From Nannocystales bacterium (GTDB lineage: Bacteria > Myxococcota_A > Polyangia > Nannocystales > Nannocystaceae), in assembly GCA_050633305.1 (NCBI GenBank), contig JBOEGF010000076.1:1-16339 (forward strand): 16,339 nt of DNA, read 5' to 3'. Positions 1 to 3,000 of this stretch are shown one piece after another (the first letter of the stretch is position 1; each line of letters begins with the position of its first letter). The position numbers were made by a program.

Positions 1-3000
1 TTGTGCGAAGGGAGGGACTCGAACCCTCACAGGAGTTATCCCACCAGATCCTTAGTCTGGCGCGTCTACCAATTCCGCCACCCTCGCGGGGGGAGCGGTT
101 GATAGCACTCCCGGAGCACCGTGGCAATACCCTTTCGAACGAAAGGGTCGAATGCCGGGCGAAGCCCCCCGAACCGCTCCTATTCCGCCTCCGGTTCGGG
201 CTCCTGCTCGTTCTTCGGGTCGAGCGCGGTGCCGACCTCGTGGAGCTTGAGCAGGTTGACCGAAAGCCGGCGCTGGATGGGGTGCGCGAACGTCACGATG
301 ACGCGCGCGCCAGGGGCGAACAGCTCCCGCCGCAGGATGGTCTGGTCCATGTCGATCAGCATGGACTCCACGTCGTCGCTGCTGGGGCTGAAGAGCAGGG
401 GAGTCACGCCCCAGTACAGGGCGAGCGCCTGGTACGTGTCGGCGTTCGGGGTGAACGCGATGATCGGCAACCGAGGCCGATACTCCGAAACCAATCTCGC
501 CATGCCGCCGGACTTGGTCACGCAGCAGATGCCTTCGGTTTGAGGCCAGCTCTCGGCGGACGTCACCGCTGCCAGAGCGATCGCGTTGGTGGTGTGGCCG
601 AGCTCGAGGTCGACCCGAGGGCGGCTCCAGTTGCGGGGAGCGCTCTCGGTACTGCGGATGATCTTGTCCATCGTGCGGACGACGAGGACCGGGTGGACGC
701 CTGTGGCCGTCTCCCCACTGAGCATGACCGAGTCGCTGCCGTCGAGCACCGCGTTGGCGACGTCCGAAGCTTCGGCCCGAGTCGGCCGCGGCTTGGTGAT
801 CATCGAGTCGAGCATCTGCGTCGCCGTGATGACGAGCTTACCCGCCCGGTTGCACATCTCGATCGCCCGCTTCTGAATGATGGGGACCAGCTCCGGGCCC
901 ATCTCCACACCCAAGTCGCCGCGCGCGACCATGACACCATCGGCTGCCTCGACGATCTCCTCGAGTCGTTCCACCGCTTCGGGCTTCTCCACCTTGGCGA
1001 TCAGCGGTACGATGCGTCCCTTTTGGCGCATCACCTCGCGGGCGAGTTCGAGGTCCTCGGGGTTGCGTACGAAGGAGAGCGCGACGAGGTCGGCCCCGAG
1101 CTCGAGTGCGAATTCGAGGTCGATGCGGTCTCGTTCGGTCAACGCGGGGACAGCCAGCCTGCGGCCCGGAATGTTGATGCCCTTGTTCGACGAGAGCAGT
1201 CCCCCTTGGACGACCGTGGTGAGCAGGACGTCGTCGACCGAGCTTGCGACGGTCAGCTCGATATTGCCGTCATCGAGCAGGATCCGATCGCCTGTTTCGC
1301 AGTCGTTGGTGAGGTTCGCGTAGGTCGTGGTGACCTTCGCGAGGTCACCGGCCTGCTCGACCGGGCCATCGGGGTTTGTACAGATCGCCAGCTTGTGCCC
1401 TTGCTCCAACAAGAAGCCGTCGCCGGGGATCTTCCCAACGCGAATCTTGGGGCCCTGAAGGTCGGCCAGGATCGCGACGGGCGTGTTCCGCCGGCTCGCC
1501 TCACGACGGACGGTTTTGAACGTCCGAGCGTGCACATCATGGCTGCCGTGGGAGAAGTTCAGCCGCGCCGCGTTCATCCCGGCGTCGATGAGCGCGCCGA
1601 CGACCTCCGGTGACTGGCTCGATGGACCGAGGGTGCAGAGGATTTTGCAGTGCCGGCCTGGTCGTTGCATCGGTGGAGAATGGCCCAGATGGCGACGAAA
1701 GCCTACGTTTGTAGGCGGGCGCAACTTGCGCAATACGGTTTTTTATGAAGGATTCACAGAGCTGGGGACATGAAGTCACCGCGATGTGACCGTTTGACAC
1801 GTACATCGCCATTCGAGGAGTCTTTGATGATGACCAAATGGGGTTGGTTGGGGGGTCTCGCGCTTGCGGGTTTGGTGGCGTGTGACTCGGCGGAGGAGGA
1901 CAAGCCGTCTGAGACCGGGCTCACGACGTCACCGGGAACTGCGAACGCGAGCGGCACCGGAACCGGTACGGGGGGTGGGGGCGGTCTCGAGGGGTCGTCG
2001 ACCGGGGGACCGGATTCCGGAACGACCACCGGCGCCCATGGATCGACCGAGCCCCCTCCCGAGCCGCCAGTTGTGTTTGACTTTGGTGCCTTGCCCGACG
2101 TGGGCGCGTTCTGTGGGGCCCCGAACCCGGTCTCGTGCGACGATGCGGACGACGATCCCTGGCACGCCATGGGGCTGAACTGCCCAGGCGGTCCCCAGGT
2201 TGACGGGACGTTCAGCGGTGACGCGGACCAGCTCTACGTGCACCAAGGCAACTTCGGAACCTCCGATGCGTTCCCACCTCGGGAGGGCGAGAGATTCGCA
2301 ATCCTTTCGAGCGGCATCGCCCAGCAGATGGTCACGACCGTTGGCGGGACCATCTCGAACTCGATGGGGGGAGGGAACCTTCCGGACCTGCCTCCACCGA
2401 TGACTCGGACCGAGGTTTCGCCCGGCGGCGGGGATACGTGCATCGACAACCCCGCGCTCGTCGGAACCGGAGACTGCTCGAACACGGTCGAAGTCCAGTA
2501 CTCGCAGGGCGGCACCGCAAACGACTTGGCGATTCTCTCGCTCTCGGCGGAAGTCCCCGAGAACACCTTCGGCTTCACGTACGACTTTGCGTTCTTTTCC
2601 GTGGAGTATCCCGTCTACTATCAGAGCCAGTTCAACGACATGTACGTTGCCTGGCTCGAGTCGGAGGGGTGGACCGGGAATATCTCGTTTGACGAGTTCG
2701 GCTCCCCGATCTCGCTCAACGCGGGATTCCTTGACTACAAGGACGCACCCAACCCGACCGACTGTCCGGCGCCTTGTGTCGCGCCTGAGCTCGCCGGGAC
2801 CGCTGCGCAGGGCCATGCGGGTACGCGTTGGCTGACGACCAATGCCCCCGTCACGCCCGGAGAGACCATCGAGGTCTACTTCGCGATCTTCGACCTCTCG
2901 GACACGTCTCTCGATTCAGCCGTCCTGCTCGACAACTGGCTGTGGACCTGCGAAGGCAGTCCTCCGGTCACGATCCCAGGCTGATCCCCGGTCCGGCGGA

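Follow-up and report, generated by a model that had tools for sequence, protein, structure and literature searches.

The window analysed here is a stretch of 16,339 nucleotides, contig C76 of an 11.0 Mb Nannocystaceae genome (66% GC, 92% complete), and it opens with a gene for tRNA-Leu with anticodon AAG. ARAGORN calls tRNA-Leu(aag) at 3-87 on the minus strand, and Rfam RF00005 matches window 87-4 (-) over its full model with 56.9 bits (cut-off 29) and a complete cloverleaf. The tRNA is of class II, with a long variable arm and A73 at window position 4; CCA is unencoded, as in most relatives. Direct reading of the sequence agrees with both programs on the loop CU-AAG-GA and the 5-bp stem, as the genome-wide survey's note had described them. 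The gene is preceded by a leader that resembles a promoter (Table 1). By eye, elements like TTG...TG(C/A)TA precede most family copies of tRNA-Leu(AAG), and a consensus promoter scan returned no sites at this leader.

Among 30 family loci, 26 have pyruvate kinase, the neighbouring gene here, next to the tRNA; the remaining four are one copy at a contig end, one accessory array and two matches that are not tRNAs. Pyruvate kinase also adjoins a GAG copy (L059), and the same neighbour genes flank the tRNA where it is GAG, in families f3 and f14, and where it is AAG, in f12. The AAG gene is the housekeeping tRNA-Leu gene, changed in place from GAG.

The whole genome has 68 ARAGORN tRNA calls, and its canonical-looking Leu set is AAG, UAG, CAG, CAA and UAA. 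A tRNA-Glu/Gln-like gene with an enlarged anticodon loop lies at a Glu/Lys tRNA cluster (G000, C32:152651-152730); ARAGORN labels it Asn(ATT), and it reflects an insertion or an assembly error. The window also holds ordinary genes, included in Table 1.

Table 1. Features of the window, with positions counted from its first nucleotide
Feature	Position	Strand	Basis or detail
tRNA-Leu(AAG) gene, CUU/CUC decoder	4-87	-	ARAGORN, Rfam RF00005, fold
Anticodon arm, 5-bp stem CCAGA/UCUGG closing on A31-U39	44-60	-	loop C32 U33 A34 A35 G36 G37 A38
Anticodon AAG; A34 at window 53, predicted inosine site	51-53	-	ARAGORN; editing predicted
Promoter-like leader: TTGCCA, 17 nt, TATCAA with TGC before it, then C-rich stretch	88-127	-	by eye
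Pyruvate kinase gene; locus marker, no functional part in the finding	180-1733	-	TIGR01064, 525 bits
VKOR and thioredoxin-like fusion	5845-6873	-	NCBIfam
Pteridine-reductase-like SDR, C-terminal part of a long ORF	10608-12449	-	NCBIfam
Peptide deformylase	15740-16267	-	NCBIfam

Distribution and origins of the AAG anticodon

With a D-arm/anticodon pattern allowing A or G at position 34, we searched 72 genomes of the family and found AAG in all 65 that matched; four extra GAG-type matches of the pattern are not tRNAs. This upholds the family-wide replacement of GAG at the housekeeping gene that the survey had reported. Across the class Polyangia (141 genomes), a pattern search counted by hand gave 134 matched genomes, 37 with AAG and 97 with GAG. 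The AAG genomes belong to f1, to f16, f18 and f23, to f6 and part of f12, and, in one case, to f24.

From 2,810 columns of SecY and 17 ribosomal proteins, a midpoint-rooted tree of 61 genomes was built, together with one of a 31-genome subset. Branches with support of at least 95 force at least three changes of Leu base 34 on this tree, and AAG forms at least three separate clades within the class. Since GAG is found in most other families, separate gains of AAG are the simplest reading. Five f12 genomes (G173, G095, G168, G086 and G115) represent GAG genera that fall among the f6/f12 AAG lineages in both trees; such genera may have gone back from A34 to G34 and regained the earlier loop, at branches that are poorly supported.

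AAG was also found in 28 of 130 matched genomes of a phylum sample (136 genomes), including 13/13 in f30 and 3/3 in f45, and in 22 of 104 matched genomes of a Verrucomicrobiota sample (111 genomes). The survey's extension of AAG to further myxobacterial and PVC lineages is thereby borne out. A pattern scan of GTDB returned at least 120 stretches, and ARAGORN calls Leu(AAG) in 76 of the 80 matches listed. Among these 76, 31 come from Bacillota, 13 from Verrucomicrobiota and 2 from Planctomycetota, and with this broader pattern the survey's view that GTDB matches are mostly from PVC bacteria does not hold. Only 15 of the 76 are labelled Bacilli, and at least 14 phylum labels occur, some of which may err as labels of metagenome bins.

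Published accounts, cited throughout from excerpts, describe a narrower range. Almost all bacterial AAG genes are placed in Bacilli, with Mycoplasma and Prochlorococcus added (PMC13249217), Firmicutes are named as AAG hosts (PMC8007984, PMC8072771), and fixed ANN tRNAs are reported only in genera of 60-70% AT (10.64898/2026.05.15.725136). The excerpts of PMC6063277 hold no mention of AAG. Our literature search gave no myxobacterial or PVC report of tRNA-Leu(AAG), and supplementary taxon lists may hold single genomes. The range of AAG, under 14 phylum labels among the matches listed, is wider than these papers state. Because the gene type is already known outside Bacilli (PMC13249217, in the part cited), the myxobacterial gene widens the range of an established system and does not amount to a new system.

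Anticodon loop and TadA

The core GAG genes examined all read UU-GAG-G(G/U). In contrast, A38 was found in 37/37 AAG and 0/97 GAG genomes of the class, in 17/17 and 0/88 genomes of the other classes of the phylum and in 19/22 and 0/82 genomes of Verrucomicrobiota, and AAG genes with A38 mostly carry C32 as well. Pooled, A38 occurs in 73/76 AAG and 0/267 GAG genomes; related genomes are not independent of one another, but each clade shows the change again. An accessory AAG gene on an unrelated backbone has CU-AAG-GA too, and its CAG twin keeps UU-CAG-GU (L023). Among the 76 AAG genes of the listed GTDB matches, 60 have A38, the streptococcal genes showing the identical CU-AAG-GA loop, and 16 keep the GAG-type G/U38, as do 3 of the 22 AAG genomes of Verrucomicrobiota.

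The loop of the window tRNA differs from that of the genome's own tRNA-Arg(ACG) at base 35 only. In most of the 77 matched class genomes (of 80), the tRNA-Arg(ACG) loop is CU-ACG-GA with either Leu type; G37 of tRNA-Arg(ACG), considered as an AAG-specific change, was rejected for that reason. The loop CUAAGGA also fits the TadA motif YUAMGRA. Hence, as the Leu loop equals the Arg(ACG) loop except at base 35, TadA would be able to deaminate A34. The C32/A38 change could also be a tuning of ribosome binding.

Other Leu(AAG) genes form a second class, whose loop stays of the GAG type, UU-AAG-G(G/U) (L067, L099, L138, L084, L086, L087, L092 and others). At least among some Clostridia bins, which form a group, this loop is conserved. 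Genomes with genes of this class mostly have tadA, and the tRNAs are possibly unedited or possibly an early step of the switch. The idea that AAG with G/U38 goes with a loss of tadA was rejected, tadA having a match in 14 of 16 such genomes and in 30 of 34 with A38 (50 of the 76 loci).

The tadA gene of the source genome, which the survey had listed as present, is intact: NF008113 matches with 177.8 bits (cut-off 150), the HAE and PCxxC motifs are kept, and the protein aligns closely with solved TadA structures. A match was found in 78 of 80 class genomes. Among these 78 sequences, residue 152 (E. coli R152) is the column that best separates AAG from GAG genomes; it is Leu in 42/48 GAG but 8/30 AAG genomes of Polyangia, and never Leu in 13/13 of f1. 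In the alignment, the source enzyme has Gly and Ala at the positions of E. coli R26 and R152, the two residues described as narrowing the base-35 pocket of E. coli TadA (PMC10586758, in excerpt). The S. pyogenes enzyme, aligned likewise, lacks Leu at 152, and the S. aureus and B. subtilis sequences are of the Leu type. As a general marker, residue 152 was not upheld in Verrucomicrobiota. In a forward test there it ranks 39th of 152 columns; one AAG clade has Ala (10/10), the other has Lys as its GAG kin do (10/10), and Ala occurs in 2/29 GAG genomes. From these alignments residue 152 is a lead, not a marker, and the Polyangia and Verrucomicrobiota comparisons gave no diagnostic TadA residue for AAG editing. 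The TadA tree used was a quick tree only.

In many Polyangia, the source genome not among them, tRNA-Arg(ACG) immediately precedes tadA in the same orientation, so that a single locus holds the enzyme and its substrate (G103:C3:121854-122358, G109:C10, G182:C176, G186:C110, G168:C5, G180:C498, G135:C99, G085:C5 and others).

The TadA of S. pyogenes, with the motif YUAMGRA, brings Leu(AAG) to full editing, and that of E. coli gave no editing of the same tRNA (10.1101/2023.09.19.555891). Editing of an engineered AAG tRNA in E. coli reached about 15%, changes at 32, 37 or 38 blocked editing, and an AAG tRNA with G37 stayed unedited (PMC11066159). As far as these excerpts go, since the E. coli enzyme fails on both the G37 AAG tRNA and the S. 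pyogenes Leu(AAG), the myxobacterial enzyme must differ from it if editing takes place, which counts against the editing reading.

By analogy with streptococci, TadA very probably converts A34 of the window tRNA, giving tRNA-Leu(IAG). In the family ancestor, the resident tRNA-Leu(GAG) would have been altered in place from UU-GAG-G(G/U) to CU-AAG-GA, and the resident homodimeric TadA would deaminate A34 to inosine. The resulting tRNA-Leu(IAG) would read CUC and CUU (and CUA), with Leu(UAG) and Leu(CAG) covering CUA/CUG. That the gene is expressed, that its A34 is edited and that TadA is the enzyme responsible is what we infer from the genomes. The survey's expectation of editing is probable and has been strengthened by the loop co-variation and the codon data, and its term 'inosine-requiring' stays a prediction. 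At a Verrucomicrobiota AAG locus (L364), two RNA-run contigs across base 34 show A, which a precursor or DNA would also give, one RNA-run contig ended before base 34, and a run of unrecorded kind read A; these are 4 of 24 runs, and such contigs cannot show editing.

Decoding of CUC

Demand for CUC decoding is high in this genome. Of 243,190 Leu codons counted over 5,272 crudely called genes, 42.2% are CUC, in agreement with the survey's 42% for the commonest Leu codon; CUC:CUU is 82:18, and CUC is the sixth commonest codon overall (4.1%). In ribosomal-protein genes its use is also high, as the survey had stated, at 53% of Leu codons on 17 genes, against the survey's 57% on 54. The CUC:CUU ratio reaches 99:1 in the ribosomal proteins of G062, where the search found no GAG gene.

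An IAG anticodon predicts an evening-out of CUC and CUU, i.e. a shift to CUU (PMC13249217, in excerpt). Among 61 genomes we found no clear Leu recoding of the kind that favours CUU/CUC in Lactobacillales. The median CUC share of CUY in ribosomal proteins is equally high in AAG (0.81) and GAG genomes (0.87), compared with 0.82 and 0.83 for other boxes. AAG clades lean towards CUU relative to their GAG relatives in 3/3 contrasts (coefficient -0.24, SE 0.14, non-significant), and the median CUY share is 0.57 in 27 AAG and 0.48 in 34 GAG genomes, a difference inseparable from kinship and from the other boxes.

If A34 stayed unedited or partly edited, the tRNA would serve mainly CUU, and CUC would be read by weak A-C wobble and by a Leu(UAG) with modified U34. 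An unedited A37G AAG tRNA indeed reads some CUC (CUU:CUC 87:13; PMC11066159), ANN tRNAs of four-codon boxes function in E. coli (10.64898/2026.05.15.725136), and O. oeni leaves two of its four A34 tRNAs unedited (PMC8072771), according to the excerpts. The source genome has trhO, so hydroxylated U34 is possible, and the slight CUU lean in all three contrasts fits as well. However, at its CUC frequency the genome would be poorly served by an unedited, CUU-preferring AAG tRNA, and the CUU shift is small and also predicted by IAG. Neither a cmoB above cut-off nor the U32 peptidase was found in the genome, which is 92% complete, and the convergence of the loop on a TadA substrate would be left unexplained. 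We consider this reading improbable.

Another source of CUC decoding could be accessory tRNA-Leu(GAG) genes. As the survey had noted, C47 of the source genome carries a divergent Leu(GAG), which ARAGORN calls in a pair with Leu(CAG) beside Arg(UCG) and Arg(GCG); base 37 of this Leu(GAG) is U, and its variable arm is short. Of 44 family genomes that are at least 90% complete, at least nine, the source included, have accessory Leu(GAG) genes, and so do 4 of 5 near-complete ones. They number 1-3 copies, several with a UU-GAG-GU loop and a long variable arm, and score 37-44 bits with Rfam. The search gave about 117 rows, with a further 20 regions checked by ARAGORN and the rest by eye, and its pattern would miss more divergent genes. 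It found no accessory Leu(GAG) in the other 35 of the 44 genomes, three of which lacked any pattern match, and a looser pattern in 10 further genomes gave mostly chance matches, with no GAG tRNA in 60 of the loci listed. The survey's 'GAG in 0 of 72' is thus right for the core gene only and, since the accessory GAG genes are real, is an effect of its search pattern; its statement that no genome has both types is contradicted by the coexistence of AAG and accessory GAG in these genomes (at least nine).

If most CUC were decoded by such GAG tRNAs, the AAG gene would be a CUU specialist, and the copies with a normal loop and long variable arm speak for this. It is highly unlikely, however. CUC is equally high in genomes where GAG was not found (G014, G024 and G062: 46-58% of Leu codons), and the source-genome copy has the U37 and short arm given above. 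Moreover, the arrays are patchy and unrelated to one another, and arrays of this sort are usually silent or stress-induced (PMC8421152, in excerpt). The spare Leu(GAG) arrays are of the same kind as the cryptic L-arrays and the Anabaena trn operon (PMC8421152), whereas the window gene stands outside any such array.

These arrays take several forms. Alternating Leu/Tyr tandem arrays with Pro occur in g14 (L375, L377, L383, L384, L463), g10 (L023, L459) and g11 (L456, L457), one Leu backbone bearing several anticodons, some with drifting loops. Genomes of genus g14 (L385, L387, L395) carry a second array resembling an L-array, with as many as 19 tRNA genes that have diverged strongly and with additional Arg(ACG) copies. 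The source genome (G000) has small, scattered divergent clusters at C47:18510-19107, C13:26362-26583, C27:100925-101282 and C10:853267-853417; the Leu(GAG) and the rare Arg(GCG) of C47 correspond, with G34, to the two tRNAs that have A34 in this genome.

An assembly error or pseudogene at the contig end, which a gene stopping 3 bases short of that end with a folding z-score of only -1.5 might suggest, has a negligible chance of being right and is refuted by conservation: AAG is present in all 5 matched same-genus genomes (source included) and in 65 family genomes, the place beside pyk and the complete cloverleaf are kept, and, in support of the survey's view that the edge is no artefact, the identical gene lies inside contigs of two same-genus genomes (L007, L008).

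Known A34 systems and the place of the myxobacterial tRNA

Editing of A34 by TadA, the reading we prefer, has its closest counterpart in Lactobacillales, where conversion of Leu(AAG) to IAG is proven in S. pyogenes (10.1101/2023.09.19.555891) and Leu(IAG) is described in S. mutans and S. pneumoniae (PMC13249217) and in O. oeni (as cited in PMC8072771). In both, the core gene has AAG in place of GAG, a single canonical tadA is present, Leu(UAG) is kept, and the loop is that of the sampled streptococcal genes. The myxobacterial host, in contrast, is 66% GC with CUC dominant and is not AT-rich; AAG arose there independently and repeatedly, editing is predicted, clear Leu recoding was not seen in the 61 genomes, and some genomes also carry accessory GAG genes. 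Furthermore, Arg and Leu loops differ at base 35 only here, but at 35 and 37 in S. pyogenes. Relative to the tRNA-Arg(ACG to ICG)/TadA pair of most bacteria, the enzyme family (NF008113) and the loop apart from base 35 are alike, whereas Leu would be a second substrate, with a purine at 35. Unedited A34 tRNAs (O. oeni Thr and Ser, PMC8072771; engineered ANN tRNAs, PMC11066159 and 10.64898/2026.05.15.725136) share a genomic A34 and a four-codon box with the window gene; here, however, the loop bases C32, G36 and A38 agree with the TadA motif, and codon usage favours the C-ending codon.

A known mechanism explains well a real and conserved feature; what is new is the GC-rich hosts, the repeated origins and a loop signature pointing to TadA. 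More tentatively, and with the odds rather against it, GAG-to-IAG might be a common, repeatable bacterial route, taken in many phyla, AT- or GC-rich, by rewriting the Leu loop to copy the Arg(ACG) loop and so placing Leu and Arg decoding under TadA. About 5% of codons (CUC and CUU) would then depend on it in myxobacteria, and the G34 arrays would be an editing-independent bypass under stress.

A CUC-preferring family of 66% GC breaks the AT-rich link drawn in the cited parts of PMC13249217 and 10.64898/2026.05.15.725136, and is a case where inosine should be needed most. The widening of TadA substrate range has been named as an open question (10.1101/2023.09.19.555891), and the independent switches with close GAG relatives are natural pairs for its study. 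Such widening would parallel the eukaryotic ADAT expansion, would imply that mRNAs of these bacteria are edited more widely, at UAMG sites, and may offer natural TadA variants with a relaxed choice of base 35.
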